Shown here: positions 4,482-31,276 of the stretch, piece by piece | How the letters are laid out: the number at the start of each line of letters is the position of its first letter | Position numbering within the stretch: position 1 is the stretch's first letter | NCBI GenBank assembly: GCA_027371715.1 | Contig: DAHXMM010000020.1 | Location: 1 to 32,000 of the forward strand | Direction: 5' to 3' | Length of the DNA stretch: 32,000 bases | Origin: Elusimicrobiota bacterium | Lineage (GTDB): Bacteria > Elusimicrobiota > Elusimicrobia > UBA1565 > UBA9628 | Notes under the pieces: model-generated | Seen by the model: only the letters and a program-made list of their open reading frames with translations | The model's database searches: none | What the model was told of the DNA's origin: nothing | Translations under genes and position numbers: made by a program

Positions 4482-5110
4482 CATGAAAAAAAAAGGGACA
4501 GTCCCTTTTTCGGCCGCCCCACATGAGAATCCAGCCCCATTTTCTTTCTTGTCTCCAGCTCACATCCATCATCCACGATATATTTGTAAATCTCCACTCT
4601 CTTTTGGGAAAAGTCAGCCAAAGACAAATAAGCGGGGCTCTCTTCCAAAAAAGGGGACTGTCCCTTTTCTCCCAAATAAAAGCGATAACTGGACCAAGAA
4701 TAATCTTCCGGTTTCCGCGCGATGGCCGCGCGCACGGGATTTAACTCGATATAGCGGCCGCAAAGAAGAAGACTTCGGTCCGTCGGCAATAAAACGCTTT
4801 TATAGCGCCCCTGCCAGAGATGCCCCACCGAGGAATTTTTCTCTCGGAAATAATCGGAATACCCCTGTAAAAGCTTTTGCATCGCCTTGCTCAGGTCTTC
4901 CGGCTTTTGAACCTGGACCAAGAGATGAATATGGTTGGGCATCAGAACATAATGATGGATCCGAAAAGGATTTTTCACCTTGCTCCACCGCAGAATGTCC
5001 AAAAATCTCTCATAATCGGCTGTTTCATGGAACACGGCTTGACGATTATTCCCGCGCGCCATCAAGTGGTAAAACCCTCCTTCAATCAAATGTCTCCCGC
5101 ATCTTGACAT
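4475..5110 (-). CDS. REP-associated tyrosine transposase (RAYT; IS200-like Y1/HUH transposase, COG1943 type)
   Basis: 211-aa ORF with N-terminal GGFYHLMARGNNRQAVF, HUH motif in VLMPNHIHLLV and catalytic-Tyr region GRYIELNPVRA. SD GGGGAG (5118-5123, minus strand) lies 8 nt upstream of the ATG. Palindromic repeats sit on both sides. The last 12 codons run through the repeat at 4486-4510, and codons GEKGQSPF run through the repeat at 4647-4668. Confidence 0.9.
   Translation of the reverse strand: MSRCGRHLIEGGFYHLMARGNNRQAVFHETADYERFLDILRWSKVKNPFRIHHYVLMPNHIHLLVQVQKPEDLSKAMQKLLQGYSDYFREKNSSVGHLWQGRYKSVLLPTDRSLLLCGRYIELNPVRAAIARKPEDYSWSSYRFYLGEKGQSPFLEESPAYLSLADFSQKRVEIYKYIVDDGCELETRKKMGLDSHVGRPKKGLSLFFSCQ
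4486..4510. repeat. Palindrome copy, A/T-run-flanked subtype
   Basis: A9-GGGACAGTCCC-T5, core at 4495-4505, starting 14 nt after the surface-protein stop and inside the RAYT 3' end. Confidence 0.9.
4647..4668. repeat. Palindrome copy, A/T-run-flanked subtype, inside the RAYT CDS
   Basis: A6-G-GGGACTGTCCC-T4, core at 4654-4664. Confidence 0.85.
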
Positions 5111-5179: not shown

Positions 5180-5203
5180 AAAAAAAGGGACAGTCCCTTT
5201 TTT
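5180..5203. repeat. Palindrome copy, A/T-run-flanked subtype
   Basis: A7-GGGACAGTCCC-T6, core at 5187-5197, upstream of the RAYT start. Confidence 0.9.
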
Positions 5204-5205
5204 CA

Positions 5206-6765
5206 TTGATTCTAAACAAAAAAGGGACAGTCCCTTTTTTCTTATTTCTACTTCTCTCCTCCATATCGGCATCGGCCGCGAGCTTCTATGCGGGTTCTCC
5301 CAACGAGATATTTCAATTCGGCGCGGATGCCAGGGCCATGGGCATGGGCAACGCCTACACCGCCATTGCCGGTGGAGCGTCTTCCCTTTATTACAACCCG
5401 GCGGGCCTCGGTCTTCTCAATGGCCCCGATGTCAGCGCCATGCAGGCCAGTCTTATTGGCGGCGCGGCCTATGAAGATTTATCCTACGCCCAAAATTTCT
5501 CAAAAATGCCGGGAGCTTGGGGCGTTGAAGCCCTCAATATGGGAGTGGGAGGGGCCGAGCAAAGAGACTCTCAAAATAATCTCACCGGAAGCTTTGGTTT
5601 TCAAGAAACCGGATACGGAGCGGGATTTGGCCTAAGGAATGTCGTCATTCCGAACTTATCCTTGGGAGGCTCTTTTCAGGGGCTCAGCCGAAGCTTGGGC
5701 GGTAGTTCTTCCGACATGCTCTATGGAGCGAATTTGGGAGCCCAGTACGGCCCCTTTTTGGACAATATGGTGACCGCGGGTTTGGTCCTCCAAAACGGTT
5801 TTAACGGAGCGCAAAATACCTTTGACCGGCTACCCACGGTTTTACGCGCAGGGCTCGCCGTCACTCCCATCAATAATCTTCTCATTTCCGCGGATTACGG
5901 CGATGATGGCGATTACGGAATCGGCGCGGAATATCGAATATGGATGTTCGCCATACGAGCCGGATATATCCCCCAAGGCCTCACCTTCGGCGCCGGAATC
6001 TATTATCAATCTCTGGAAGCCGATGTCGCGATGGTCAACGATCCAATTTTTGGAATGGGGGAGAGATTCTCGCTTAATTACCGATTCGCGGGAAAGAAGA
6101 AAGAAAAGCCTCTTGAAGCTTACACTAATAGTTATCTGGATGCCGCAAAAAAAGAATTAAGTCTCCGCAATTATCTCAGCGCGCAATTCGCGCTTGAAGA
6201 AGCGATGGGAGTCTCTCCCGCTCAGATTCCTCAGACATGGAAAGAAAAACTCAAACTTCTTCAAGCTTTTAATGGCAGCCTAGATCTCAAAAACCGTCCG
6301 GATGAGGTCAAAACTCTCCTTGCAAAAGATCAACCGGCCATACTCGCCCAAAAATCGGTTTTTTCTTATTTAAACGGACGCGACGGAGACGCCATGATTT
6401 GGGCGTCCGTGGCAGCCGGAACCGCTCATAAATCCATGCCCTATATTGACTTTGTCAAGACGATGGCTTATCTTACGAATATGAAGGTTTCGGAAGGGGA
6501 TTTATTGCCTCCACCAGATTATGTTTCCAAAAAAATGGAGACTGCTCTTCATGCTATTTATCAAAAGCGTTTTGCCAATGCGGTTAAAAATTGCCAACAG
6601 GCCATCGTGGTAAACCCGAAAGAGCCTTCTGCCTGGACGCGGCTGGGTAGCGCTTATTTTGCCTGGGGACATAAGGATGAAGCCAAAAAAGCCTATCAGA
6701 AAGCTTTAGAGCTTGATCCCAAGAACGAAAATTTAAAGAAATTTATGGAGATGTATATCAAATGA
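5206..6765 (+). CDS. Outer-membrane beta-barrel protein (PorV/PorQ- or UPF0164-like N-terminal motif) with C-terminal TPR domain
   Basis: In-frame TTG at 5206 gives MILNKKGTVPFFLFLLLSSISASAAS, a plausible signal peptide; the first in-frame ATG would remove it. GADARAMGMGNAYTAIAGGASSLYYNPAGLG resembles the conserved N-terminal motif of PorV-like/FadL-like barrels, followed by Gly/aromatic-rich beta-strand-like sequence. The C-terminus has TPR-like repeats (AWTRLGSAYFAWGHKDEAKKAYQKALELDPKN). The 760-aa ORF-track model (4483..) is an antisense-RAYT artefact at its 5' end. Confidence 0.7.
   Translation: MILNKKGTVPFFLFLLLSSISASAASFYAGSPNEIFQFGADARAMGMGNAYTAIAGGASSLYYNPAGLGLLNGPDVSAMQASLIGGAAYEDLSYAQNFSKMPGAWGVEALNMGVGGAEQRDSQNNLTGSFGFQETGYGAGFGLRNVVIPNLSLGGSFQGLSRSLGGSSSDMLYGANLGAQYGPFLDNMVTAGLVLQNGFNGAQNTFDRLPTVLRAGLAVTPINNLLISADYGDDGDYGIGAEYRIWMFAIRAGYIPQGLTFGAGIYYQSLEADVAMVNDPIFGMGERFSLNYRFAGKKKEKPLEAYTNSYLDAAKKELSLRNYLSAQFALEEAMGVSPAQIPQTWKEKLKLLQAFNGSLDLKNRPDEVKTLLAKDQPAILAQKSVFSYLNGRDGDAMIWASVAAGTAHKSMPYIDFVKTMAYLTNMKVSEGDLLPPPDYVSKKMETALHAIYQKRFANAVKNCQQAIVVNPKEPSAWTRLGSAYFAWGHKDEAKKAYQKALELDPKNENLKKFMEMYIK
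5218..5240. repeat. Palindrome copy, A/T-run-flanked subtype, overlapping the OMP signal-peptide codons
   Basis: A6-GGGACAGTCCC-T6, core at 5224-5234, read as KKGTVPFF. Confidence 0.9.
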
Positions 6766-6913: not shown

Positions 6914-9430
6914 ATGGACATCTTAATGATCGTTTTTATTCCCAGTCTTTTTATCATCCTGGGAGCCCTAATGTTTATCGTCAGCCGGGTGATGGAATTC
7001 TCGCAATCCAATCGTTATTTCGCAAAACAAAGAGGAAACAGCCTTATGTTTACGCGTTTCATGACTCAAATTGCCATGGCCAAAAGCCAACTTGGAAAAA
7101 GAGCCCAGGAATTGGAAGCTCTGTCCATGCGCCTTCAAATGAATAACGAAGAACTTGCCCGGCTCAACAACCTCAAAATGAAATTCTTATCAATGGCGGT
7201 TCATGATATTCGAAATCCACTCACCGCTATTACCGGTTACAGCGACATTTTGTCTCGCAACAAAAATCTAGGACCCAAAGAGCAGGTTTTGTCAAAAATG
7301 ATTTTGACCGCGACCCGGCAAATCAACCATCTGATGGGAGATCTCACCGATCTCGCCGTCATCGAAGCGGGAAAATTTAAAATGGAAATGGCGCCCTTTG
7401 ATCTGGCCGGACTCATCCAGGAAGTAGGGGCCACTTTGACCCCGGGAGCCTCCAACAAAGGCGTCATTCTTTCTGTTCGAGAACCTCCGCCCGGAATTAT
7501 CATCACCGCCGACCGCTACCGCATTTGGCGCGTTTTGACGAATCTTTTGGGAAATGCCGTTAAATTTACCCCTTCTGGAGGACGCGTCGAACTCCGGGCC
7601 GAAGTCGCGGCGGGAATGGCCATGATTTCAGTCCAAGACAACGGCCCCGGGATTCACCCGACCGAACGGCGGAAAATTTTTGAAAAGTTCTACCAGTCAA
7701 AACACATCAAAGATGAAAAAGCCCGCAAGGGCGGCTGGGGATTGGGACTGGCCATCGCCCAAGAAATTGTTCAGTCCCACGGGGGAGAAATCGGAGTCGA
7801 CAGCCGTGGTCTCGGACACGGTTCTACTTTTTGGGTTCGCATTCCTCTTAAAGCCAAGCGCCCCATCCGCTCCAGCCCCATGCGTCTTGCGCTCGCTTTA
7901 ATCGGGTTTTTAGCGCTCTCTTTGGCGCCGAAAAAAACTCAGGCTCAAACTGTTCCCTTCCTTGAAAAATCAAAATTCGAAAAATCATTGGAAACCAAGG
8001 TGGACGGAGTCCTTCTCAATATCTTGGGGCCCAATCGAGCCAAAGTCATCATCAACGCGACCCTCAATTTCACAAAAACCGAAAGCTTTCAAACCGAAGG
8101 CGCCAGCATCACGACGACAAAAACCTCGGGGCTTCCGTATCTTTGGCAAGAACCCAGTAAAACGGCGCAACCCGAAGAGTTGCTACCGGGAGTGCCGCTT
8201 GATTCCGGCGGCCCGGCTCTTCCCACGCCGCCGCCATCCATCAAGGGCTATAAAAAAGAAGATTCCTTCCCCGCCGAATTTATCAAAAGATTAGACGTCA
8301 CTCTCATTTTGGATAATTCCGTCAAGGGAAACCGGAGCGCCGAAATCGGCAAAATTACGGCCGATCTTCTCAGTCTCAATCCTAAACGAGGAGATTCTCT
8401 GACCGTGGTCCACACCGAGTTTTCTCCGATCTGGAAAACCGTTTGGTACTCTCCGGAAACTGCCGGTATGCTTCTTAAATATATTTTAACCGGATTTCTC
8501 TTTTTTATGGCGCTCATCGTCATCGCCGTCGGATTTATCAAAATCGCCAACGCCATGCGCATGATGGCCAACGCACAATCCCAGCAAATCTCAATGGAAA
8601 TGAAGGGGCTTGATGGCGAGGGGGGAAATGGACCGGGCGGAGTTTTAGGACATAATACGCTCATGATTGGGGATCAGAAATCGGGAGAAAACGCCCCTGA
8701 AAACAAAAACGAACCGGTCATGTTTGACGTGCGAATGGACCAAGTAGAAACCCTGGCTCAAATGCTTCTCCCCGAACCACCTGAAAATGTCGCCATTGTT
8801 GCCTCGCGCTTGACTCCGGATGTTTCAAAAAGGCTCATCGACGCCCTCCCGCCGGAACTGGCGAGCGCGGTCGTCAGTCAACTCGCCCGCCCGCGCTTTA
8901 TCGATCCGGAAATTATCGTCAACTTAAAGGAAGAGTTAGAACGGCGTCTTTCCGGCGCGGTCGGAGGAGTGCATTATCTCGCGGAACTGATGTCGGCCGC
9001 CAGCCAAAAAAGGCGTCATGAAATGCTGGAAGCCGTTCGCTCTCAAAACCAAAACCTCGCCGAGGAACTCAGAAAACGAGTCTTTTTCATCGAGGATCTC
9101 TCAAAACTAACCCAACAAGAATGGTCGTATCTCTTGTCCTTGGTCACTTATCAAGAATGGAGCGCCGGTCTCCATGAGGGTCCCCAAGTCGTCGTTGAAG
9201 CCATCAAACAAAATGTCTCAGAAAAAGCCTGGGGGGTTCTCAGCGAGATGATTGAAGCGGCTTCTCCCACAACAGAACAAACAGAAACGGCGCAAGATAA
9301 AATCGGTCAAAGCGTCTCAGAACTCATCCGGGAACAAAGAATCAAAACCATTGCGCCGCAATTGGGACTTCAAATTCATGAATCTCCAGTTGAAGAAGAA
9401 AAAGGCGCGGAAAGTAGTAAGGGCTCGTGA
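6914..9430 (+). CDS. Three-TM fusion protein: histidine-kinase core (HisKA + HATPase_c), FliF-like periplasmic ring domain and FliG-like (middle + C-terminal) domain
   Basis: ATG 6914 is preceded by GGAGG (6904-6908). TM1 is MDILMIVFIPSLFIILGALMFIV. Kinase motifs: H-box AVHDIRNPL (His codon 7202-7204), N-box LLGNAVKF, DNGPGI, GWGLGLAI. TM2 is at 7880-7927. FliF-like motifs are LGPNRAKVIINATLNF, IKRLDVTLILD and RGDSLTVVHTEFS. TM3 is at 8468-8548. FliG-like motifs are EPPE, GGVHYLAEL, VFFIEDL and NVSEKAWGVLSE. There is no in-frame stop anywhere between the modules. Confidence 0.8.
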   Translation: MDILMIVFIPSLFIILGALMFIVSRVMEFSQSNRYFAKQRGNSLMFTRFMTQIAMAKSQLGKRAQELEALSMRLQMNNEELARLNNLKMKFLSMAVHDIRNPLTAITGYSDILSRNKNLGPKEQVLSKMILTATRQINHLMGDLTDLAVIEAGKFKMEMAPFDLAGLIQEVGATLTPGASNKGVILSVREPPPGIIITADRYRIWRVLTNLLGNAVKFTPSGGRVELRAEVAAGMAMISVQDNGPGIHPTERRKIFEKFYQSKHIKDEKARKGGWGLGLAIAQEIVQSHGGEIGVDSRGLGHGSTFWVRIPLKAKRPIRSSPMRLALALIGFLALSLAPKKTQAQTVPFLEKSKFEKSLETKVDGVLLNILGPNRAKVIINATLNFTKTESFQTEGASITTTKTSGLPYLWQEPSKTAQPEELLPGVPLDSGGPALPTPPPSIKGYKKEDSFPAEFIKRLDVTLILDNSVKGNRSAEIGKITADLLSLNPKRGDSLTVVHTEFSPIWKTVWYSPETAGMLLKYILTGFLFFMALIVIAVGFIKIANAMRMMANAQSQQISMEMKGLDGEGGNGPGGVLGHNTLMIGDQKSGENAPENKNEPVMFDVRMDQVETLAQMLLPEPPENVAIVASRLTPDVSKRLIDALPPELASAVVSQLARPRFIDPEIIVNLKEELERRLSGAVGGVHYLAELMSAASQKRRHEMLEAVRSQNQNLAEELRKRVFFIEDLSKLTQQEWSYLLSLVTYQEWSAGLHEGPQVVVEAIKQNVSEKAWGVLSEMIEAASPTTEQTETAQDKIGQSVSELIREQRIKTIAPQLGLQIHESPVEEEKGAESSKGS

Positions 9431-9498
9431 CAAAATAATAACAGTCTCTATTTACTTCGTCATTTCTTCATGATTCAATACCATTTTTGTTCTATCCT

Positions 9499-10443
9499 AT
9501 GGGTATGGCTGAAAGTCCGAAAGGTTCCATCTTTTCCTCCTTAAGGGCGCTGGAAGAAATTCCGGAAGAAACTCCCGCCGCGCCTCCGACTTCGCAAAAC
9601 CCTTCACCCTCTCCCACCCCCGCCGCACAAACACCAACGCCCACGCCGCCACCTTCGCAAGCGCCTCCTCCATCAGATGAGACTTTGAAAGCCGTGGAGT
9701 CAAAAATCGAAAAGTTAGAACAAAAAATCCAGGAGATGGGGACAGTCCCCAATTCAGACCCTCATCTTAACCGTATTGAAGCCCTGGAGCAAAAATTGCA
9801 ACAAATGCAGGAACGCGCCATTCAGGCGGAGGTCGCTCTCAGAGAGCGCGAGAAATCCCAAGAAGCCGCCCGGCGCGAGACGGAATCTCTTCTTCAAAAT
9901 TTAGCGTCCCAGCGCCGGCTTGAAGAATCGGACCGGCAAATGAAGGAAAATCTGGCTTATTGCCGACGCCGAATCGAAGAATTGGAGGAAAAACAATCCT
10001 CTATTAAAATTCCGGATACCCAACAATCGGAAAATGAGTTTAAATCCCTCCTAAAAAGTTTTATGGAACAGATCGAGCTAAAAACAACTCCGGTTTTAGC
10101 GTCTCTTGTTGATCTCAGGAAAGAAAATGAAAACCGCGAAAAAGAAAATCGCGGCATGGAGCAAAGGATAAACGAGATTGAGAAAAATATCAATTCTTTT
10201 TTTTCGACAGAGTTAGGGCAAGCGAGCGCTCTAGCAGAAGGATTACGCCACCTAAAACAAACCGTGGAACGAGTCAACACGGAAACCGCGGAAAAACTCG
10301 AAAAAATAAGCGCCGCTCTAAGCCTATTAGAATTTAGGCATTCCCAAGCGAAAAACACAACAGAAGAATTACGCGCTCTCGATAAAGACTTTCAGAAAAT
10401 ACTCTCCATTCTCGATGCCAGCGTTTCCAACTCGCCCAAATAA
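9499..10443 (+). CDS. Pro-rich N-terminus / long coiled-coil cytoplasmic protein, unknown function
   Basis: The ORF has heptad-like charged repeats (IEKLEQKIQE, IEALEQKLQQMQERAIQAE, RRRIEELEEKQ) and a PT/PS-rich tract (PSPSPTPAAQTPTPTPPPSQAPPPS). The start is ambiguous (ATG 9499 or 9505; the ORF-track start at 9487 is non-ATG). It contains an in-frame palindrome copy (EMGTVPNS). Confidence 0.7.
   Translation: MGMAESPKGSIFSSLRALEEIPEETPAAPPTSQNPSPSPTPAAQTPTPTPPPSQAPPPSDETLKAVESKIEKLEQKIQEMGTVPNSDPHLNRIEALEQKLQQMQERAIQAEVALREREKSQEAARRETESLLQNLASQRRLEESDRQMKENLAYCRRRIEELEEKQSSIKIPDTQQSENEFKSLLKSFMEQIELKTTPVLASLVDLRKENENREKENRGMEQRINEIEKNINSFFSTELGQASALAEGLRHLKQTVERVNTETAEKLEKISAALSLLEFRHSQAKNTTEELRALDKDFQKILSILDASVSNSPK
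9738..9754. repeat. Palindrome copy inside the coiled-coil CDS (read as MGTVPNS)
   Basis: gagatGGGGACAGTCCCCAATTca, perfect core at 9739-9749. Confidence 0.85.
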
Positions 10444-10444
10444 A

Positions 10445-10460
10445 GGGATAGTCCCTATTA
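10445..10460. repeat. Degenerate palindrome copy GGGATAGTCCC
   Basis: taaaGGGATAGTCCCTATTAg, starting 2 nt after the stop at 10441-10443. Confidence 0.6.
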
Positions 10461-10500: not shown

Positions 10501-11238
10501 ATGGAACTAACATCGATCATCGGTCTAGGGGCTATTCTAATTTTAACTGCGATTGGCCTTGCCACTGGAGGGCTTCCGGCGGTTTTCATCAACTGGCATG
10601 GAATTGGAATCGTGCTTGGGGGAACTTTTTGCGCCCTCATGATCAACACCCCACTGGATATTTTGCTCAGAACCGGATCGTCTGTGACCGATTTAATTTC
10701 GGCCGATCCTTATGTCGACCGGATCGCTCTTGTGGACGCCATCATGACACTAGCACAAGAGGTTCAATCCCGGGGAATTAACGCCTTTAACAATGTCAAT
10801 AAAACAGTGGCCGCCGGGTATCTCGCTTACGCCGCTCAAATCGCGGTTGAATATAACAACCCTGAAACCCTCCGACAGGTGCTGGAAAATGAGATCATTC
10901 AAAATTCCGATTTACAGAACGAAGCGGTCAACGTTTTTAGAACCGCCGGAATTTTGGCGCCGATGTTCGGACTTTTGGGAACCTTAATTGGAATTGTCGA
11001 GGTTCTGCGCCAAATCGCCAACCCCGCACAAGTGGGTTCCGCCATGGCGGTCGCCATTACGACCGCTTTTTATGGCATCGCGACCGCAAACGTTTTTTGC
11101 GTGCCGATAGCCGGTAAACTAAGAATTCGCTACTGGAGAGAAACGCAGGCCAAGACCATGATTTTGGAAGGCGTCTTTGAAATCCTCCAGCGAACGCCCG
11201 CCGTCATTATCTCGCGGAAACTGAAATCTTATCTATGA
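10501..11238 (+). CDS. motA: MotA/PomA-family stator proton-channel subunit (MotA_ExbB family)
   Basis: MELTSIIGLGAILILTAIG...IVLGGTF N-terminal TM pair, a long cytoplasmic loop, then GILAPMFGLLGTLIGIVEVL and MAVAITTAFYGIATANVFCVPIAGKL, typical of MotA TM3/TM4. ATG 10501 is preferred over the ORF-track TTG 10465. Confidence 0.85.
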   Translation: MELTSIIGLGAILILTAIGLATGGLPAVFINWHGIGIVLGGTFCALMINTPLDILLRTGSSVTDLISADPYVDRIALVDAIMTLAQEVQSRGINAFNNVNKTVAAGYLAYAAQIAVEYNNPETLRQVLENEIIQNSDLQNEAVNVFRTAGILAPMFGLLGTLIGIVEVLRQIANPAQVGSAMAVAITTAFYGIATANVFCVPIAGKLRIRYWRETQAKTMILEGVFEILQRTPAVIISRKLKSYL

Positions 11239-11241
11239 ATG

Positions 11242-11262
11242 AATTGGGGACTGTCCCTAATT
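11242..11262. repeat. 21-nt palindrome copy between motA and motB
   Basis: AATTGGGGACTGTCCCTAATT, core at 11247-11257, 4 nt after the motA stop and 8 nt before the motB ATG. Confidence 0.9.
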
Positions 11263-11269
11263 ATTAATT

Positions 11270-11962
11270 ATGAGACGCTCAAGGCACGAAGACCTCGAAA
11301 ATCAGCTTGCGAAATCCGCCCAATGGGCCATTACCTATGGGGATTTCATGAGTTATCTCATGATTTTCTTTCTCATCATGTTTTCTTTCACGCTTTCAAA
11401 ATCCGGAGGGAAAACTACGGAAAACGTTAAGTATCAGGAATCCCTCATTAAAATTCAGAAGGTCTTTGGCGGGAAGGGAAGCTCCGTGGATTATGATCGC
11501 CTGATTAAGCGCGAAAAAGAAGAGTCCATGGTCACCCAACTTAAACAAGCTCTTGATAAAAAGGATTTGTCAAAATACGCGAAAATAGAAACCTGGGATA
11601 AAAAAATTCGACTCATCTTAGCCAGCGCGGTTCTTTTTGACTCCGGCCGAGCAAGCTTAGCCCCGCGATCGGAAAAAATTTTAGCCGCCGTCGCCCAACA
11701 ACTTAAAACCTTGGACAACCCGATTCAAATTGAAGGGCATACCGATAACGTTCCTATTAACGGCGGACGCTATAAATCCAATTGGGAACTTTCAATGGCG
11801 CGCGCCTACTCAGTTCTCGTTTTTTTTGAGAAACAAGGCATCGCGCCTCAACGTTTGTCCGCCATCGGCTACGGCCAATATCACCCCATCGCCGACAACA
11901 AAACGCCGGAAGGACGCGCTAAAAATCGTAGAATCGAGATAGATTTATTACGGACGGAATGA
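11270..11962 (+). CDS. motB: MotB-family stator subunit with OmpA-like peptidoglycan-binding domain
   Basis: N-terminal WAITYGDFMSYLMIFFLIMFS is a single TM with the conserved proton-binding Asp context (compare E. coli YADFMTAMMAFF). The C-terminal OmpA-like domain reads IQIEGHTDNVPI...SNWELSMARAYSVLVFF...IGYGQYHPIADNKTPEGRAKNRRIEI. Confidence 0.9.
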   Translation: MRRSRHEDLENQLAKSAQWAITYGDFMSYLMIFFLIMFSFTLSKSGGKTTENVKYQESLIKIQKVFGGKGSSVDYDRLIKREKEESMVTQLKQALDKKDLSKYAKIETWDKKIRLILASAVLFDSGRASLAPRSEKILAAVAQQLKTLDNPIQIEGHTDNVPINGGRYKSNWELSMARAYSVLVFFEKQGIAPQRLSAIGYGQYHPIADNKTPEGRAKNRRIEIDLLRTE

Positions 11963-15735: not shown

Positions 15736-15746
15736 GGGACTGTGCC
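15736..15746. repeat. Degenerate palindrome copy GGGACTGTGCC
   Basis: agataGGGACTGTGCCtcttc, 4 nt after the stop at 15730-15732. It has one mismatch to the core and is complementary to 15770-15780 except at the central base. Confidence 0.6.
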
Positions 15747-15769
15747 TCTTCTTCATAATTCTTAAGGGC

Positions 15770-15780
15770 GGCACTGTCCC
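15770..15780. repeat. Degenerate palindrome copy GGCACTGTCCC
   Basis: aagggcGGCACTGTCCCgacc, with one mismatch to the core. Confidence 0.55.
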
Positions 15781-15801
15781 GACCTTAAGGTTCTAAGGAA
15801 A

Positions 15802-15817
15802 GGGACAGTCCCTAATT
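15802..15817. repeat. Palindrome copy GGGACAGTCCC + TAATT flank
   Basis: ggaaaGGGACAGTCCCTAATTatt, with a perfect core, 24 nt upstream of the thiolase ATG. Confidence 0.85.
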
Positions 15818-19170: not shown

Positions 19171-19242
19171 TGGGCCGTAGAGGATTTGAACCTCTGACAT
19201 CTGTCGTGTGAGGACAGCGCTCTACCGCTGAGCTAACGGCCC
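19171..19242 (-). tRNA. tRNA-Val (anticodon CAC)
   Basis: The reverse complement GGGCCGTTAGCTCAGCGGTAGAGCGCTGTCCTCACACGACAGATGTCAGAGGTTCAAATCCTCTACGGCCCA folds as a cloverleaf. It has a 7-bp acceptor stem, GCTC/GAGC D stem, CTGTC/GACAG anticodon stem with loop CTCACAC, a 5-nt variable loop, and AGAGG/CCTCT T stem with TTCAAAT loop. CCA is not encoded. Confidence 0.95.
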
Positions 19243-19251
19243 GACTTTTTG

Positions 19252-19280
19252 ATTTTACAAAATAATTAGGGACTGTCCCT
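19252..19280 (-). promoter_or_regulatory. Possible sigma70-type promoter for tRNA-Val: -35-like GGGACA (inside the palindrome), 16-nt spacer, -10 TAAAAT
   Basis: The minus strand reads AGTTAGGGACAGTCCCTAATTATTTTGTAAAATCAAAAAGTC followed by the tRNA 5' G. TAAAAT (19257-19252) is 9 nt from the mature 5' end. This is a by-eye match only. Confidence 0.25.
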
Positions 19281-19284
19281 AACT
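19264..19284. repeat. 21-nt palindrome copy between tRNA-Val and the FAH gene
   Basis: AATTAGGGACTGTCCCTAACT, core at 19269-19279, 7 nt before ATG 19291. Confidence 0.9.
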
Positions 19285-19290
19285 CTGATC

Positions 19291-20328
19291 ATGAAGCTGT
19301 TAAGTTTTGAGATTTCAACGCCGCTAGGACCCAAAGAACGCCTCGGCGTTTTATCCGGCGCTCATGTTATCGACATCAGCCTCGCCACAAGACTTCGATT
19401 CGAAGCGGAAGGAAAATCTAATCCTGAAAGACTTGCCGAGGTCTTTGCTCCGCCGGAAATAATCGCTTTTTTAGATATGGGAAACGAGTCTTTTTCGGCC
19501 GCGCGGGAGACCCTCGATTTTTTATCTAAAAACTTTCCCCAAAAAACGCCTCTTGGAAGTCGTGGGGAAAAAATTGACTACTTGGAAGAAGAAATTCGCT
19601 ATCTTCCGCCCATCCCTCACCCTGGAGCTTTGAGAGATTTCTTCGCCTTTGAGGATCACGCTCTTAAGGCTTCTGAACGCCGGAACGAGCCCTTAAGCGA
19701 GGCCTGGTATAACCAACCGATTTATTACAAAGGAAATCACCGCGAAATTTATGGGCATAAAGCAGTTATCCCCTGGCCCAGTTATACCCGGCGTTTTGAT
19801 TTTGAACTTGAAATCGCCTGCGTTATTAAAAAAAAGGGGCGCAATATTCCGGTTGAAAAAGCAGGCGAATATATCGCCGGATATTCAATATTAAATGATT
19901 TCTCCGCCCGCGACATTCAAAAAAACGAGATGGTTTGCCGCATGGGCCCCGCCAAAGGAAAAGATTTCGCGACTGGCCTTGGGCCTTATCTGGCGACGCC
20001 CGATGAAATCAAAGACCCAAATAATCTCGCGATGTCTGTTTCCATCAACGGCGAAAAATGGAGCGCGGGAAATTCCGGCGGAAGGTACTGGAGTTTTGAG
20101 ACCATGATTTCTCATATCTCCCAAGAAGAAACAATTTATCCCGGAGATATTCTGGGATCAGGAACCTATTACCGCGGTTGCGGACTTGATTTGGACCGCT
20201 GGGTTAAGCCGGGAGACTTGATCGAACTTGAAGTCGAAGGTCTGGGAAAACTCATTAATAAGGTCGGAACATCCAAAGAACAAAGACAGCTTAAATACCC
20301 GAGAAAAGCAAATGTCCTTGATCGTTAA
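19291..20328 (+). CDS. Fumarylacetoacetate hydrolase (FAH) family protein
   Basis: 345 aa with a C-terminal FAH fold signature: PIYYKGNHREIYGH, ELEIACVIKKKG, GYSILNDFSARDIQKNEM...GPAKGKDFATGLGPYL. It sits next to the HGD gene. Confidence 0.85.
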   Translation: MKLLSFEISTPLGPKERLGVLSGAHVIDISLATRLRFEAEGKSNPERLAEVFAPPEIIAFLDMGNESFSAARETLDFLSKNFPQKTPLGSRGEKIDYLEEEIRYLPPIPHPGALRDFFAFEDHALKASERRNEPLSEAWYNQPIYYKGNHREIYGHKAVIPWPSYTRRFDFELEIACVIKKKGRNIPVEKAGEYIAGYSILNDFSARDIQKNEMVCRMGPAKGKDFATGLGPYLATPDEIKDPNNLAMSVSINGEKWSAGNSGGRYWSFETMISHISQEETIYPGDILGSGTYYRGCGLDLDRWVKPGDLIELEVEGLGKLINKVGTSKEQRQLKYPRKANVLDR

Positions 20329-21529
20329 GCGCGGAGACGTCCCTAAAACCCCACACACTGAATTTTACGGGCGAAAAAATATTCTGTCTTTGGAAGAAAT
20401 CCACGGCACCTACGGTTTTTCCGGAGCTTTCTCCCGGAAGATGCACTTGCGTCGCTACCCGACGATTCAAATAGAAAGCCCTAAACTCCTGCCATTAAAC
20501 CTCAGTAGTCCCGTTCTTAAGGACGCGCCGCTCAGCCCCTATCATCTTTTGACCGGAAAAATACCCTCTCAAGGGGTTTTCGAGCGTTCAAGGCATTGTC
20601 TTCTCAAAGGTCCAAGCGCCGTGATTTCAGTTTCCAAACCAACGAATTCTTCTCCTGAAAATGATTTTTTTCGAAACGCGGAAAGGCACGAATGTCTTTT
20701 CGTACAAGAAGGAAACGGAATTTTGGCCAGCGAATACGGCGAGCTCAAATTTCAAGAAAAAAAATATCTCGTCATTCCCAAGGGAACGACCTATCAATTC
20801 CGCCTTTCAAGTAAACGCGCCTTCTTTCTAATCATTGAATCTCTCTACCCTATTCGCTTTGCCCCGCATTACCTTAACTCCGAGGGACAAGCCACTTTGA
20901 TGTCTCCGGTCATTGAGACTGAAATTGGCATTCCCCAGCTCAAAGAGCCTCTGGACATCTCGGGGAAGTTTAACATCCTCTCTAAACATGACGACGGGAA
21001 AATGACAAAGATTGTCTTGGGGCATCACCCCTTTGATCTCATCGGCTGGGAAGGCGCGCTTTACCCCTTTACCTTTGACTCATCCGATCATCATTCCATC
21101 GCGCGCGAAATTCACACCGCCCCGCCGGTTCGGCAAACCTTTCAAGCGGGAAACGCGCCCCATAGCGGATTTTCAATCTGCACTTTCCGCGCTCAAATCG
21201 AGGGATGGAACCCCAAGGACGTGCCCGCGCCCTATGCGCATTATAATGTTGACTCCGATGAAATGATGTTCTTTTCAAACACAAGCTACGGGGCCCGGAA
21301 AGGAATCGTTGAACCCGGTTCCATCACCTTTCATCCCTCGGGTCTTCCGCATAGCCCGCATGGAGACGCCGCAAAAAAGTCCTTTAAATCTCGCGGCACA
21401 CTGTCGGATTATCTAGCCGTCATGTTGGATACATTTTTTGAATCTCTTCAGCCCACAAAAGAAGCCCTTAAATATTGCGACTCCCAATATCCGCTGAGTT
21501 GGGCCAAAGCGGAAGGGGACTGTCCCTAA
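20312..21529 (+). CDS. hmgA: Homogentisate 1,2-dioxygenase (short bacterial/archaeal COG3508-type cupin)
   Basis: ATG 20312 (MSLIVKRGDVPKTPHTEF...EEIHGTYGFSG) overlaps the FAH stop by 17 nt. The cupin core is ERHECLFVQEGNGILASEYGELKFQEKKYLVIPKGTTYQF, followed by FHPSGLPHSPHG. The stop TAA (21527-21529) is supplied by the palindrome flank. Confidence 0.75.
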   Translation: MSLIVKRGDVPKTPHTEFYGRKNILSLEEIHGTYGFSGAFSRKMHLRRYPTIQIESPKLLPLNLSSPVLKDAPLSPYHLLTGKIPSQGVFERSRHCLLKGPSAVISVSKPTNSSPENDFFRNAERHECLFVQEGNGILASEYGELKFQEKKYLVIPKGTTYQFRLSSKRAFFLIIESLYPIRFAPHYLNSEGQATLMSPVIETEIGIPQLKEPLDISGKFNILSKHDDGKMTKIVLGHHPFDLIGWEGALYPFTFDSSDHHSIAREIHTAPPVRQTFQAGNAPHSGFSICTFRAQIEGWNPKDVPAPYAHYNVDSDEMMFFSNTSYGARKGIVEPGSITFHPSGLPHSPHGDAAKKSFKSRGTLSDYLAVMLDTFFESLQPTKEALKYCDSQYPLSWAKAEGDCP

Positions 21530-21531
21530 CT
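21515..21531. repeat. Palindrome copy at the HGD 3' end that supplies its stop codon
   Basis: ggaaGGGGACTGTCCCTAACTccATG, core at 21516-21526. The TAA at 21527-21529 is the HGD stop. Confidence 0.9.
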
Positions 21532-22157: not shown

Positions 22158-22907
22158 ATGAAAAAACCGTTCATGAACTTTGTCGTTGACCACATGACTT
22201 TTCTCGTCGAACCGCGTTTTTATCCCGTCACATACGCTCTTTTTAGAATTATCTTTGGTCTTGGGGATGAAGACATCATCTACAATAAACGCCGAAAATG
22301 GCCTGGCGAGAACCAGGAAAAATCAATGACCTTTGCCGCCCGGCTTGGACGTTATGAGGGAAAGCCAGGACTCGATCAATCCATCATAGCTGTCGTTCAG
22401 CCCTCCGAACCCGAATCCCAGCCGTCTCACGTCCGGGAAATGCTTAAAAACCGAGGAGGATCCGCTCATTGGCAGCATATTGCTCTGAGAACGCCGGATT
22501 TAATGGCCTTTCACAAATACGCGCTTGAGCGCGGGGTCAATTTCATTACGCCTATTCTCAAAGACGCGGAAGAAGATTTAATTCAGGTCTTTAGCGGCGA
22601 GTGGAAGCTCCCCGGAATGCCGTCCAGCGGAATCTTTTTTGAGTTTGTCCAGAGAAACCCCTCCGCCGAACTCCTTGAGAAAATTACATCCAACCGCGAG
22701 GCTTTCTTTCGGGATAAAACTTTCTTGGGCCTTTACCAAGAAAAGGAAGCTGAATATCAAAGCAAAAAAGTTCGCCCTTTTATCGATGACGATCTTTTCT
22801 TTCAAATGGAAAAATCCTTGGCGGGGAAACCTATTTGGGAATTGACAGCTCAAGATTTGCGCCTCGTGGAAGAAAAAATGAAAAACTATGCCCATTCAGC
22901 GGTTTGA
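22158..22907 (+). CDS. VOC (glyoxalase/dioxygenase) superfamily protein, 4-hydroxyphenylpyruvate dioxygenase C-domain-like
   Basis: HWQHIALRTPDLMAFHKYALERGVNFITP...IQVFSGEW...GIFFEFVQRN resembles the HPPD C-terminal catalytic module (QHIA...F.E.IQR). At 249 aa it is shorter than canonical HPPD. Confidence 0.6.
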   Translation: MKKPFMNFVVDHMTFLVEPRFYPVTYALFRIIFGLGDEDIIYNKRRKWPGENQEKSMTFAARLGRYEGKPGLDQSIIAVVQPSEPESQPSHVREMLKNRGGSAHWQHIALRTPDLMAFHKYALERGVNFITPILKDAEEDLIQVFSGEWKLPGMPSSGIFFEFVQRNPSAELLEKITSNREAFFRDKTFLGLYQEKEAEYQSKKVRPFIDDDLFFQMEKSLAGKPIWELTAQDLRLVEEKMKNYAHSAV

Positions 22908-22908
22908 T

Positions 22909-22923
22909 AGGGACTGTCTAACT
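22909..22923. repeat. Degenerate palindrome copy with a 2-nt deletion
   Basis: tgatAGGGACTGTC--TAACTctg versus 19268-19286 AGGGACTGTCCCTAACTctg. It lies between convergent stops. Confidence 0.6.
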
Positions 22924-23703
22924 CTGGGGAGGGGGATAAGGTAGTCCGCGCACGGAAAACTCGGCGCTGACATCGCCCAAAATAGCGTTTTCGCCAAAAG
23001 CCGCCATCTCAAGCCTGGCCGAATTAAGCGTTTTCTTCCCACGGCGGATATTGAGGTGAGAGATAAAAACCTTTCCAGAACTCGCGAAATTTTCGCTAAA
23101 GCCAATTTTTTGATCTTCTAATTGATGAGAATTTAAAAACTTTTCCTTTTGACTTCGGTCTAAGATTGAAACAATGACCGGCTGAACCTTAGTCAAACGA
23201 GTTTTCGAAATAAAAAATCTTAACTCCAAATGTTTGCGCAAATCTTTCAAGGATTTAGGAAATAGAGAAACAATAAATTCTCCATTCGAGGAATTTCCGT
23301 AAAATGCGGAAAAGACTTTGGCGGAAGACTCCTCGCCCTTTAAGGCTTTTTTAAGCGTCACTTTTTTAGTCTTTTTGTTTTTAATTTTCTCAACTACATT
23401 TTGAATCTGGCGCACAAAGAAGGCGGATTTAAAGTTTTTCTTTTTCTCTTTAAAAACTTGAATGGGCTTCCAATGGACCGAATCCTTAGGAATGAAAACC
23501 TCTACGGATGCCTTATATTTTTTCTTTTTTTTCTTTAAACTTCCTTTTTTATTTTCTTTCTTAGGACGTTTAAGGGCCAATTTGTGATTAGATTTTGATT
23601 TTTTCGTTGAGGTGCTTGTGGCGACGTTTTGAGCCGGCAAAACAGTAGGAAATGCCGCCCCTAAAAAAAACCACGCCATTAAAATCGAAAAAAATTTTTT
23701 CAA
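22918..23703 (-). CDS. Lys-rich secreted protein, unknown function
   Basis: TTG start 23703-23701 overlaps the valS stop (TTGA). The signal peptide is MKKFFSILMAWFFLGAAFPTVLPAQN. Poly-Lys tracts are present (KKENKKGSLKKKKKKYK). The gene is visibly more A/T-rich than its neighbours. Confidence 0.6.
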   Translation of the reverse strand: MKKFFSILMAWFFLGAAFPTVLPAQNVATSTSTKKSKSNHKLALKRPKKENKKGSLKKKKKKYKASVEVFIPKDSVHWKPIQVFKEKKKNFKSAFFVRQIQNVVEKIKNKKTKKVTLKKALKGEESSAKVFSAFYGNSSNGEFIVSLFPKSLKDLRKHLELRFFISKTRLTKVQPVIVSILDRSQKEKFLNSHQLEDQKIGFSENFASSGKVFISHLNIRRGKKTLNSARLEMAAFGENAILGDVSAEFSVRGLPYPPPQS

Positions 23704-26414
23704 GCGAGAACCTTAATCAATTCTTCAAGGCGCGCTTTTTTAGAGAGCGCCGTATCCTGGAGAAACCGCGTTTCAGAGACCTCTTCCATAGCCGCTTTTG
23801 AAAGATAATTGGGATCAGAGAGCTTCTGCGATAATTTGCCCAAATCGTTTTCAACTTTTCCAAGCTCTTTTTTTAAGCGTTCAGATTCTTTCTTAAAATC
23901 AATCAAGCCTTCAAGCGGAACATAGAAGGTAAAGTGCGGAGTCACCGTGGAAGCCGCCTTGGTGGGCAGAGATTCTCGCTTAGAACTTAAGAAAGAAATC
24001 TCTCTTCCCCCGGCTAACGCCGCTAAATAAAGAAGATTCTCTTTTAAGAAGTTTGTCTCTGCGGCGTCTTCGCTTTGACAAATGACGGGAATCTTAAGCC
24101 CTGGAGAGATGCCCAGCTGCGCGCGCAAGGACCTTAAAGACTTAACCGCTTCAATTAAAGCGCTCATTCCTTTTTGGGTTTCTTCCGTAATTTTAATTTC
24201 CGGGACATTTGGAAAACGGGAATTCATCAAAAAATCCGCGGGTTCGGTATCCCAAGTTTTTAGGACCGAATAAATTTCTTCCGTGACAAAAGGCATCAAG
24301 GGATGAAGCATTTTAACGACGCCATTTAAAACGGTTATTAAAACGCGAAACGCCGTTTTTTTGGCTCTTAGATCGGCGCCTTGAAGGCGGAGTTTTGCTA
24401 TTTCTACATACCAATCGCAAAACTCATCCCACAAAAACTCATACATTTTCTCCGTCGCGTTGGCGAGATTATAAATTTCAATTTCTTCTTGAACGGAAAG
24501 AATCATCTTTTGGTATTCAGACAAGATCCAAACATCCGCCGCCTCTAATTGGAAGTTAGGGACTGTCCCTAACTCTTCAGGGGCGACCGCATTCATCAAG
24601 GCAAAGCGCGCGGTATTCCAGAGTTTATTGGTAAAATTTCGTCCGGCAATCAGCGAATCTTCCGAAAATAAGATGTCTTTTCCGGGACGGGCTTGGGAAA
24701 TTAAGGAAAAGCGAAGAGCGTCGGTTCCATATTTGTCCATCATCTCGATCGGATCGATAACGTTTCCGAGAGACTTCGACATTTTTTTTCCCTTTTTATC
24801 GCGAATGATGCCGTGGATAAACGCTTCGGAAAAGGGGACCTTCCCGGTTAAATAGAGACCCATCATCTGCATACGAGCGACCCACAGATAGATAATTTCG
24901 TATCCCGTGACGAGAATTTGAGTTGGGTAATAACGCTGGAGATCCTGATTTTTTTCCGGCCAGCCAAAAACGGAGAAAGGCCAAAGGGCCGAGGAAAACC
25001 AGGTGTCTAAAACGTCGGGGTCTTGAATCAATTCCAAATGACCGCAAACAGAACAAGCCTTTGGCTTTTCGCGAGAGACCACTCCCCTAAGATTAGGAAT
25101 TTGATGGAAAGATGAGTCTTTTGAAATCGCGTTGCATTTAAGACAGTACCAAACGGGAATTTCATGTCCCCACCAAATTTGGCGGGAGACGCACCAATCG
25201 CGAATATCGAGGAGCCAGTTCCTATAAGGCTCTTTCCAGGAGGCCGGATAAATTTTAAATTGGTTATTCTCCAAAGTCTTCAAAGCCCCGGCGGCCAAGT
25301 CCTTGGTTTTAACAAACCACTGCCAGGAAAGAAGCGGTTCAATAATTTCCTGACAACGATAACAAATTCCGACCGCGTGCGGATGGGTTTCCGTCTTTTC
25401 CAAAAAGCCTTGGAATTCCAAGTCTTGAATAATTTTTTTGCGCGCATCTTCTCTGGACAATCCGGCATAAAGGCCGCCTTCTTCAGTGATTTTTCCGGAA
25501 GGGGAAATGACCTTGATGCGGGGAAGTTGATGCCGAAGACCCATTTCAAAGTCATTGGGATCATGAGCGGGAGTGACCTTGACGGCTCCCGTTCCAAAAG
25601 AAGACTCGACAAAACCATCTTCAATCACCGGAATTTCTCGGTTCACAAGCGGCAAGCGAAGTTTTTTTCCAATTAAAGACCGATAGCGCTTGTCCTCGGG
25701 GTAAACGGCGACCGCGACATCTCCCAGCATGGTTTCAGGCCGGGTGGTGGCCACAACCAACCCCGGTCCGCCGGAAGCCTCCGGGTAGCGGATATGCCAG
25801 AGATTTCCCTTTCTTTCCTCATGCTCAACTTCTATGTCGGATAAAGCCGTTCCGCATCTCACGCACCAGTTGACCAACCGCTCCCCGCGGTAAAGAAGCC
25901 CGTCATCCCACAATTTTTTAAACGCCTCAAAAACGGCCGCTTTTCGTTTTTCATCCATCGTAAAGGACTCACGGCTAAAATCAAGCGAACATCCGAGTTT
26001 CTTGAGTTGCCCCAAAATCGTCTCTTTACAATGAAGCGTCCAATCTTCCATGCGCTGGGTAAAAGCCTCCCTTCCAATTCTAACGCGAGAAGTGTTTTCA
26101 GCCTTTAAAATTTTTTCCATTACGGTTTGAGTCGCGATGCCGCCGTGATCGGTTCCAGGAACCCAGCAGAGATCTTTTCCTGACATTCTCTTTAAGCGGG
26201 CCAGAAAATCTTGAATGGTATTATTGAGCGCATGCCCAACATGAAGCGCTCCCGTTACATTCGGAGGGGGAATGACCAGGGAATACGGTTCTTGATTTAA
26301 ATCAGGATGAGAATTGAAAATCCCCGATTGAGCCCAATGGTTCACCCAGCGAGCCTCAACATCCTTGGGACTATAGGCTTTGTCCCAGGTTTTTATTTCG
26401 GTCGTTTCATTCAT
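23700..26414 (-). CDS. valS: Valine--tRNA ligase
   Basis: 904 aa with HIGH motif PPPNVTGALHVGHALN, KMSKS motif GKKMSKSLGN, editing-domain TTRPETMLGDVAVAV and a C-terminal coiled coil. Confidence 0.97.
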   Translation of the reverse strand: MNETTEIKTWDKAYSPKDVEARWVNHWAQSGIFNSHPDLNQEPYSLVIPPPNVTGALHVGHALNNTIQDFLARLKRMSGKDLCWVPGTDHGGIATQTVMEKILKAENTSRVRIGREAFTQRMEDWTLHCKETILGQLKKLGCSLDFSRESFTMDEKRKAAVFEAFKKLWDDGLLYRGERLVNWCVRCGTALSDIEVEHEERKGNLWHIRYPEASGGPGLVVATTRPETMLGDVAVAVYPEDKRYRSLIGKKLRLPLVNREIPVIEDGFVESSFGTGAVKVTPAHDPNDFEMGLRHQLPRIKVISPSGKITEEGGLYAGLSREDARKKIIQDLEFQGFLEKTETHPHAVGICYRCQEIIEPLLSWQWFVKTKDLAAGALKTLENNQFKIYPASWKEPYRNWLLDIRDWCVSRQIWWGHEIPVWYCLKCNAISKDSSFHQIPNLRGVVSREKPKACSVCGHLELIQDPDVLDTWFSSALWPFSVFGWPEKNQDLQRYYPTQILVTGYEIIYLWVARMQMMGLYLTGKVPFSEAFIHGIIRDKKGKKMSKSLGNVIDPIEMMDKYGTDALRFSLISQARPGKDILFSEDSLIAGRNFTNKLWNTARFALMNAVAPEELGTVPNFQLEAADVWILSEYQKMILSVQEEIEIYNLANATEKMYEFLWDEFCDWYVEIAKLRLQGADLRAKKTAFRVLITVLNGVVKMLHPLMPFVTEEIYSVLKTWDTEPADFLMNSRFPNVPEIKITEETQKGMSALIEAVKSLRSLRAQLGISPGLKIPVICQSEDAAETNFLKENLLYLAALAGGREISFLSSKRESLPTKAASTVTPHFTFYVPLEGLIDFKKESERLKKELGKVENDLGKLSQKLSDPNYLSKAAMEEVSETRFLQDTALSKKARLEELIKVLA
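24554..24574. repeat. Perfect 21-nt palindrome inside valS (read as ELGTVPNF)
   Basis: AGTTAGGGACTGTCCCTAACT, core at 24559-24569. The arms are exact reverse complements. Confidence 0.9.
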
Positions 26415-31249: not shown

Positions 31250-31276
31250 GGGAATTGAGGACAGTCCCCAATTCCC
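31250..31276. repeat. 27-nt near-palindrome (degenerate core AGGACAGTCCC) upstream of speA
   Basis: GGGAATTGAGGACAGTCCCCAATTCCC has 13-nt arms with one mismatch. It lies in the 98-nt gap between the CDGSH stop and the speA start. Confidence 0.75.

Follow-up and report, generated by a model that had tools for sequence, protein, structure and literature searches.

The 32,000-nucleotide stretch of contig DAHXMM010000020.1 (from an Elusimicrobiota bacterium) analyzed here, hereafter the window, carries repeated copies of the short palindrome GGGACWGTCCC, which is probably the invariant core of a repetitive extragenic palindrome (REP) hairpin belonging to a REP–RAYT system (RAYT, REP-associated tyrosine transposase) of the Elusimicrobiota. 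Three copies lie within protein-coding genes, where they are read as the peptide GTVPN, and, as part of the same probable reading, these three copies have three different histories. In the surface-protein gene, open reading frame (ORF) 1, the alignments show a recent insertion; in a coiled-coil gene, the copy is one state of an older intragenic repeat; and in valS, the alignments show a repeat occupying a homologous stretch of unchanged length. An earlier note on this DNA had named the three copies and proposed that they form one repeat family rather than convergent protein motifs. All three are in place and read GTVPN (EELGTVPNFQ in valS), and their membership in one family holds, but the size of the mobile unit and the way in which it reached each gene differ from what was proposed.

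Related loci were compared as species S (loci L123 and L001), T (L003), U (L130), V (L131), and X (L133), with a further lineage, L134, compared at the coiled-coil site; together, the clade DNA amounts to about 130 kb from partial genomes. Identity of the cyclase and of MotA groups the window species with S and species U with V, at ~90% within the pairs and ~72% between them. Several independent assemblies of the window species carry the copies unchanged, as do all members of the 90% protein clusters; the copies are therefore not assembly errors, and an assembly artifact was rejected on this basis.

The repeat and its associated RAYT gene

GGGACWGTCCC occurs 11 times in the 32-kb window compared with 0.01 expected occurrences in dinucleotide-preserving shuffles, and none of 100 shuffles (0/100) reached this count. 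The REP unit of the window species is the 21-nt palindrome AGTTAGGGACWGTCCCTAACT, and its length is given by two independent lines of evidence, the insert in ORF1, AGATGGGGACTGTCCCTAACT, and the perfect palindrome in valS, AGTTAGGGACAGTCCCTAACT. The 21-mer is fully self-complementary and, as single-stranded DNA, forms a stem of 9 bp with a 3-nt loop; the valS copy has a predicted folding energy of -7.6 kcal/mol (z = -3.5), and hairpin folds were obtained for other copies as well. When 46 distinct copies from the clade were aligned, the four scored core pairs were invariant and the outer pairs covaried, with the second pair outward from the core (alignment columns 10 and 24) being A-T in 21 copies and T-A in 21. 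Across the outer stem, 85% of cells were paired compared with 77% in shuffles, and the covariation score was 0.269 compared with 0.147 (0/500 shuffles), figures that are somewhat inflated by subfamily structure among the 46 copies. An Rfam scan of the window returned tRNA only, with no match for the repeat.

Intergenic DNA makes up 3.9% of the window, yet it contains 5 of the 11 cores, which are thus ~20-fold denser there than in coding sequence; the intergenic copies lie at gene ends or 7–25 nt upstream of start codons. The other cores (6/11) are inside ORFs. Outside the core, the arms vary by species: TTA..TAA in the window species and species T, AAAAAG..CTTTTT in species S and U, and AAATA..TATTT in species X. 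The REPs at 11242–11262, 15797–15817, 19264–19284, and 21511–21531 occupy orthologous positions in four to five species (window compared with L123, L001, L003, L130, and L133), with arms typical of each species around an unchanged 11-nt core. Species-typical arms at orthologous sites suggest homogenization or in-place replacement of the repeats.

Persistence of intergenic copies at orthologous positions across four species, while their surroundings change, would also be expected if the hairpins were host regulatory elements (terminators, mRNA-stabilizing or -processing hairpins, or operators) maintained by selection, with the coding copies as by-products. Many copies do lie at the above distance before start codons within operons, and the A-run/T-run variants score as bidirectional terminator-like elements. 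The dominant TTA/TAA variant, however, has no T-run, and terminator-like scores were obtained for the A-run/T-run copies only, so termination was rejected as a general explanation. One copy also sits between tRNA-Val and the divergent FAA-hydrolase gene and therefore occupies a promoter region rather than a transcript end. Regulation would leave both the linkage with RAYT and the intragenic copies unexplained, and we consider it unlikely as an account of the family; as a secondary, co-opted role, of the kind proposed for E. coli REPs, it would be compatible with a REP–RAYT system.

The gene that suggests such a system, at 4475–5110, was overlooked in the earlier note. Its product scores 87.4 bits against the NCBIfam equivalog NF047646 (REP_Tyr_transpos; cut-off 80) and 1.4e-15 against Pfam Y1_Tnp (PF01797), and its best and sole relative in the PDB is E. 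coli TnpA-REP (4ER8). The sequence has an HUH motif (NHIHLL), the catalytic Tyr, and the motifs HLWQGRYKS, YIELNPV, and WSSY. Four cores flank or overlap the gene, two on one side (4495 and 4654) and two on the other (5187 and 5224). In species S, U, and X, the RAYT gene also lies between the surface-protein gene and a TPR gene, each time amid the same cores; the order ORF1–RAYT–TPR is therefore syntenic in four species, with RAYT identities of 65–70%. In another Elusimicrobiota metagenome-assembled genome (MAG), a more distant RAYT (52% identical) lies between inverted copies of a variant that differs from the core by one base, GGGGACAGACCCC / GGGGTCTGTCCCC.

The association extends beyond the phylum. 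A scan of a genome collection with the 14-mer GGGACTGTCCCTAA gave at least 138 loci, mostly from other phyla, with two from Elusimicrobiota among the matches listed. Although the 138 loci were listed by DNA pattern alone, at least five have a RAYT homolog (31–41% identity) directly flanked by GGGACWGTCCC: Caldiserica, Carboxydothermus islandicus, Sphingorhabdus buctiana, a Tissierellia MAG, and an Acidobacteria MAG. In other phyla, the core is set in lineage-specific, perfectly complementary outer stems. Because the core flanks RAYT homologs in this clade and in five other phyla, the palindrome is likely to be the cognate repeat of one RAYT clade. Judged by sequence, such invariance of an 11-nt core across phyla is striking for a REP family, and because the core accompanies one RAYT clade in at least six phyla, it is a good candidate for the element recognized by the transposase.

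Among the matches listed, the core is also repeated with long lineage-specific complementary arms in Sphingomonadales, Oscillospiraceae, Collinsella, Acidobacteriota, Carboxydothermus, and Aeribacillus (loci L052, L048, L030, L015, L040, L107, and others), and the Sphingomonadales locus, L052, has 10 cores in 8 kb. A metagenome scan with the perfect 21-mer found essentially one locus, from a gut organism of low guanine-cytosine (GC) content, and no further copies from the Elusimicrobiota clade. In these metagenome contigs (L135–L153, GC 27–31%), the 21-mer lies within a 29-nt palindrome, GCCCAGTTAGGGACWGTCCCTAACTGGGC, with related copies nearby; they appear to represent a single organism, unrelated to the source of the window.

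Histories and reading frames of the coding copies

ORF1 of the window species contains 21 bases, located between ..GCC CTG G and CC GCC.., that species S (L123), U (L130), and X (L133) lack. The boundaries of the insert are unambiguous, there is no target duplication, and the orthologs in the three related species have neither the insert nor the peptide. At the level of sequence, the alignment shows a young, clean, lineage-specific, in-frame insertion of one REP unit. The mobile unit is thus 21 nt, or 7 codons, and not ~35 nt as put forward earlier. That figure had been drawn from flanking sequence shared with the coiled-coil copy beyond the palindrome, of which the left part, AGATG, does belong to the repeat unit; the right part, CC GCC AGC CCG CAT, is present in orthologs without the palindrome and is therefore ancestral host sequence. 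AGATG is a non-consensus left arm that, within the window, occurs only at 3991–3995 and 9734–9738, in the two plus-strand coding copies, which are 5.7 kb apart. Because the ATG of the coiled-coil copy is older, being common to L134, the ORF1 insert may have been copied from this already "translatable" intragenic repeat.

In the coiled-coil gene, E-[LM]-G-x-[VLI]-P is conserved codon for codon in every homolog, including two lineages without the exact palindrome. The codons at the site are GAG ATG GGG ACA GTC CCC AAT in the window species, GAA ATG GGA GCA GTC CCT CAT in L134, GAA TTA GGA AAT CTC CCA ATC in species S, GAA TTG GGG ACA GTC CCT AAT in species U, and GAG TTG GGA AAT ATT CCC AAC in species V. 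All five lineages match the REP consensus here at 14–18 of 21 positions, and against the window background, 14 or more matches are reached by true REP copies only; every lineage therefore appears to carry an old intragenic REP at this site, and the conserved motif is evidently encoded by the repeat. L134 has an intermediate state, GGAGCAGTCCC. Although 7 of these 21 positions distinguish species U from species V, all nine stem pairs are kept in both. Two of the differences are double compensatory changes: at pair 2/20, U has A-T and V has G-C, with both bases at synonymous third positions, and at pair 8/14, U has G-C and V has A-T. The stem is evidently maintained within coding sequence, through either selection or palindrome-templated correction.

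Two further observations were made at this gene. Species V has two adjacent coiled-coil paralogs (L131 3447–4556 and 2621–3460) with the same N-terminal region, both of which carry a perfect hairpin variant, AGTTGGGAAATATTCCCAACT. Directly after the REP, at 9755–9790 of the window, ~10 extra codons (S-D-P-H-L-N-R-I-E-A-L-E) are found in the clade of the window species and S and are absent in U and V (L130 and L131).

The valS ORF (23700–26414, minus strand) encodes valyl-tRNA synthetase (ValRS), whose best protein matches are from Elusimicrobiota MAGs, in agreement with the origin of the window in that phylum. The REP in valS matches the consensus at 21/21 positions with 10/10 pairs. The ortholog in species S (protein 85% identical) is of equal length, and the two genes align without a gap from end to end at 81.9% nucleotide identity. 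Where the window species has G AGT TAG GGA CAG TCC CTA ACT T, species S has G AAT TGG GCG ATC TCC AGG ATT T, and ELGTVPNF aligns with ELGDLQDF. The 21-mer is identical at 10/21 positions between the two, a value that ranks among the lowest 1.2% for 21-nt windows of this gene. The loop has the same length in species X and is not shorter in more distant orthologs (orthologs at 55–85% identity), and the copy is therefore not an insertion. The site matches the REP consensus at 11/21 positions in species S (a level with a window background of ~0.7%) and at 9/21 in species X, and both retain the three outermost stem pairs. Between the window species and S, identity at the four-fold degenerate sites of valS is only 57%, so that under neutrality, a copy passed down from their common ancestor would no longer be perfect. 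The valS copy is evidently either young or actively kept at consensus; either way, there was no change in length.

The valS alignment shows, base for base, a perfect consensus REP in place of the homologous 21-nt stretch, with the length unchanged. We infer that the route was templated replacement, for instance gene conversion with another REP as donor or an exchange mediated by the transposase at a REP-like site of older date. An insertion with an exactly compensating 21-nt deletion was judged unparsimonious, although the present data fit both it and replacement. As described in the earlier note, ARFALMN and DVWILSE border the length-variable segment that contains the copy, and the expectation of a surface loop agrees with an AlphaFold model of ValRS in which the site is a coil between helices 587–607 and 625–646. 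Mean pLDDT of the model is 86.8, the 10-residue GTVPN block has the lowest value of the region (64), and T. thermophilus ValRS (PDB: 1GAX) has a 4-residue gap at the REP site. On this model, the site is a tolerant surface loop.

These comparisons bear on the proposal that all three coding copies are in-frame insertions of one ~35-nt mobile unit, in the manner of Rickettsia palindromic elements (RPEs). The clean in-frame insertion in ORF1 and the AGATG arm common to the ORF1 and coiled-coil copies are what such a unit would produce. An indel at GTVPN was found on ortholog alignment in ORF1, where it measures 21 nt and is bordered on the right by host sequence; valS has no indel, and the coiled-coil homologs all carry the site, which is homologous codon for codon in every relative. 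Insertion thus stands for one gene of the three, and a common ~35-nt unit is very unlikely.

The peptide itself follows from the structure of the repeat. As previously noted, two of the three frames on each strand of the TTA..TAA form meet TAG or TAA: when the arms are AGTTA..TAACT, AGT TAG closes one frame and a final TAA closes a second, and the open frame on both strands is TTA GGG ACW GTC CCT AAC. Given the stops in the arms and a 21-nt length that keeps the frame, any surviving internal TTA..TAA copy must read LGTVPN, and this reading is evidently a filter, not a preference. The accompanying claim that copies always read GTVPN was too broad because three further ORF-internal cores of the window use the other two frames. 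In ORF 4475–5110, the core at 4654 is read ..GEKGQSPFLEE.. and that at 4495 is read ..KKGLSLFFSCQ before a stop; in the homogentisate-dioxygenase-like (HgmA-like) ORF 20228–21529, the core at 21516 is read ..AEGDCP, and the REP supplies the TAA stop. From the same REP, the HgmA-like protein ends in GDCP in the window species and in ELGTVPN in species T. At the RAYT tail, the repeat gives GLSLFF in the window species, GTVPFF (twice) in species S, and GQSLF in the ortholog P0132; the copy inside the RAYT ORF gives KGQSPF in both the window species and S, GDSPLF in P0132, and RDSPHF in P0133. Each of the three frames occurs among copies whose arms are free of stops. What is conserved is evidently the DNA word, not the peptide.

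Convergent selection for GTVPN, with the palindrome merely following from the peptide, would account for the same pentapeptide in three proteins, but 5/11 cores of the window are intergenic, and copies in the window or its relatives are also read as GQSP, GLSL, GDCP, GDSP, or RDSP. In addition, synonymous third positions covary for the stem (GAA..AAT versus GAG..AAC), and the ORF1 orthologs manage without the peptide; we regard this explanation as practically out of the question. For annotation, the peptide GTVPN, like several ends of genes in these genomes, is best treated as repeat-encoded and should not be taken as a protein motif.

The RAYT ORF overlaps the convergent ORF1 by 7 nt (4475–4481). 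Its end falls within or just past a REP, which the orthologs read in all three frames, and the conserved C-terminal motif GRPKK is partly encoded by the A-run of the flanking REP.

Mobility, possible renewal in place, and relation to known systems

Besides the ORF1 insert, a 55-nt inverted doublet at 15736–15790 differs in presence between species: S, T, and V lack it at the corresponding position, and a 94.5% identical copy lies at a non-orthologous intergenic site in S (L123 9888–9942). Each of the two adjoins a singlet REP, and the doublet folds at -11.9 kcal/mol (z -3.1). An identity of 94.5%, compared with 57% at valS four-fold sites between the same two species, together with this pattern of presence and absence, indicates real mobility.

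Mobility also bears on whether the core could be a motif like HIP1 or a DNA uptake sequence, built in place by point mutation under a genome-wide bias (uptake, methylation-linked repair, or selection). The resemblance is considerable: those systems, like this one, comprise a short exact word far above chance that also occurs inside genes, where one frame is preferred and the protein segments concerned are less constrained, with some copies of substitutional origin. Here, the valS and coiled-coil copies differ from their orthologs by substitutions only, L134 has the intermediate GGAGCAGTCCC, and the 11-nt core is invariant, with variable arms, even across phyla. Such a process would not produce the tight linkage of the core with RAYT in this clade and five other phyla or the clean 21-nt and 55-nt presence/absence indels, and the ~20-fold intergenic bias is unlike the coding-wide spread of HIP1. 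The covarying stems further indicate a hairpin and not a linear word, and a substitutional origin fits valS only. We consider this alternative quite unlikely. Cyanobacterial HIP1 itself was rejected, as GCGATCGC has 0 copies in the window.

In the REP–RAYT interpretation, by analogy with E. coli TnpA-REP, the RAYT would recognize the REP hairpin on single-stranded DNA, cut it, and rejoin it, and would spread copies without target duplications. Most copies are found at the boundaries of genes; the few within ORFs would survive only if their length is a multiple of three, TAG and TAA are out of frame, and the site is a tolerant loop.

A more tentative proposal, which we think possible though rather doubtful, is that REPs are also renewed in place by templated replacement or conversion, possibly mediated by RAYT, and not only by insertion followed by decay. 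If this were so, renewal would overwrite a REP-like stretch with the current consensus and leave its length unchanged; in valS, four codons of an essential enzyme would have been rewritten. Renewal would also explain the species-specific arms at orthologous intergenic sites and the paired stem changes within ORFs, including synonymous ones, and a DNA hairpin would then dictate protein sequence. In-frame colonization of ORFs by a palindrome is explained by known biology; the valS copy is the one point that goes beyond the described literature, and it suggests conversion-like renewal of REPs. Length-neutral replacement as in valS is described in neither PMC3733652 nor PMC3184786.

Several points weigh against the interpretation as a REP–RAYT system with three histories. 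The unpaired GTAG tag of classical REPs is missing from the fully self-complementary 21-mer with its 3-nt loop, and most copies are singlets rather than REPIN doublets, with the mobile 55-nt inverted doublet being the only REPIN-like arrangement noted. Action of the RAYT on these hairpins is predicted from its family. A length-neutral copy such as that in valS is not explicable by simple insertion and needs an extra, undemonstrated mechanism, and the coiled-coil protein has no homolog outside the clade, so its copy may or may not have originated as an insertion. The comparison also covers only the ~130 kb of clade DNA sampled from partial genomes.

In other respects, the system resembles established REP–RAYT systems (REPtrons, such as E. 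coli TnpA-REP/YafM with REP/BIME and Pseudomonas REPIN–RAYT). A RAYT above the equivalog cut-off is flanked by its own repeats, which are over-represented, mostly extragenic hairpins that insert without target duplication, and the position of the RAYT gene is syntenic across related species, which fits vertical inheritance. RAYTs flanked by REPs, with largely vertical inheritance and long persistence, are established (PMC5581495; bioRxiv 10.1101/2021.07.10.451892 and 10.1101/2024.10.14.618302). Elusimicrobiota are mentioned neither in a REP survey (PMC3733652) nor in a survey of HUH endonucleases (PMC6006769); the present system would add a compact REP–RAYT pair to a phylum known mostly from metagenomes. 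A literature search for the exact core GGGACWGTCCC found no bacterial paper naming it, and PMC6006769 does not mention it.

The closest described class may be that of the TIRYTs and TIRtrons (Di Nocera et al., 2013; PMC3733652), RAYT-like genes bordered by repeats with a common GGGGWSAS motif. Some of these repeats are self-complementary and form moderately abundant families, and they occur across many phyla, as does the core described here. In the most frequent form of the core, the left half, GGGGACAG, fits GGGGWSAS, and by this likeness of motif, the family appears to fit the GGGGWSAS-flanked class better than it fits classical REPs. The repeats in PMC3733652 are, however, described as terminal inverted repeats, whereas those found here are 21-nt hairpins.

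The earlier note had called in-frame copies unusual for REPs, but intragenic REPs, some of them in housekeeping genes, are already documented, as are stop codons provided by the ends of REPs and a link to Rickettsia RPEs (PMC3733652; reviewed in PMC3184786). The window has the same features: repeat peptides in frame within otherwise normal proteins, including housekeeping enzymes, and repeat ends that give stops. The differences are of scale and origin. RPEs are ~100–150 nt long and encode 30–50 residues, and RPEs and REP dimers contribute 20–50 residues compared with 7 codons from the 21-nt singlet here; moreover, insertion can be demonstrated for just one copy of the three.

Other copies and neighboring genes

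All REP copies noted in the window, including three degenerate ones, are listed with the RAYT gene in Table 1.

Table 1. REP copies and the RAYT gene in the window
Feature	Position	Strand	Reading or context
REP in surface-protein ORF1 (ORF 180-4481), AGATGGGGACTGTCCCTAACT	3991-4011 (core 3996-4006)		Read (E)MGTVPN, context EMGTVPNSASPH
RAYT gene, 211 aa	4475-5110	minus	ORF runs through two REPs
REP with A-run/T-run arms, 3' end of RAYT ORF	4490-4510		Read KKGLSLFF
REP with core within RAYT ORF	4649-4669		Read KGQSPF; GDSP and RDSP in RAYT orthologs
Two REPs just upstream of RAYT gene	5182-5202 and 5219-5239
REP in coiled-coil gene (ORF 9487-10443), AGATGGGGACAGTCCCCAATT	9734-9754 (core 9739-9749)		Read (E)MGTVPN, context EMGTVPNSDPH
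Degenerate REP GGGATAGTCCC after coiled-coil gene	10440-10460
Intergenic REP, motA/motB	11242-11262		Orthologous position in species S, U, and V
55-nt inverted doublet of imperfect REPs (REPIN-like)	15736-15790		Adjoins singlet REP
Intergenic REP, DUF3307/thiolase genes	15797-15817
Intergenic REP, tRNA-Val (minus strand)/FAA-hydrolase gene	19264-19284
REP over 3' end of HgmA-like ORF 20228-21529	21511-21531		GDCP and TAA stop
Degenerate REP between two convergent hypothetical genes	22905-22925
REP in valS, perfect consensus AGTTAGGGACWGTCCCTAACT	24554-24574	minus (gene)	Read E-L-G-T-V-P-N-F
Degenerate REP GAGGACAGTCCCC beyond speA	31253-31273

The tRNA-Val gene has the anticodon CAC (19171–19242, minus strand), lies 5 kb from valS, and is the sole Rfam or ARAGORN match in the window.

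Upstream of the coiled-coil gene, the plus-strand ORF 6914–9430 encodes a histidine kinase (HisKA and HATPase_c) fused to a FliF C-terminal-like segment and to the middle and C-terminal domains of FliG. Next come the coiled-coil gene, motA, motB, and a HEAT-repeat gene, an order kept in all related loci; the intervals noted after the fusion ORF are 9499–10443, 10501–11238, and 11270–11962. From its domain composition, the protein looks like an unusual fusion of a sensor kinase with a rotor switch.

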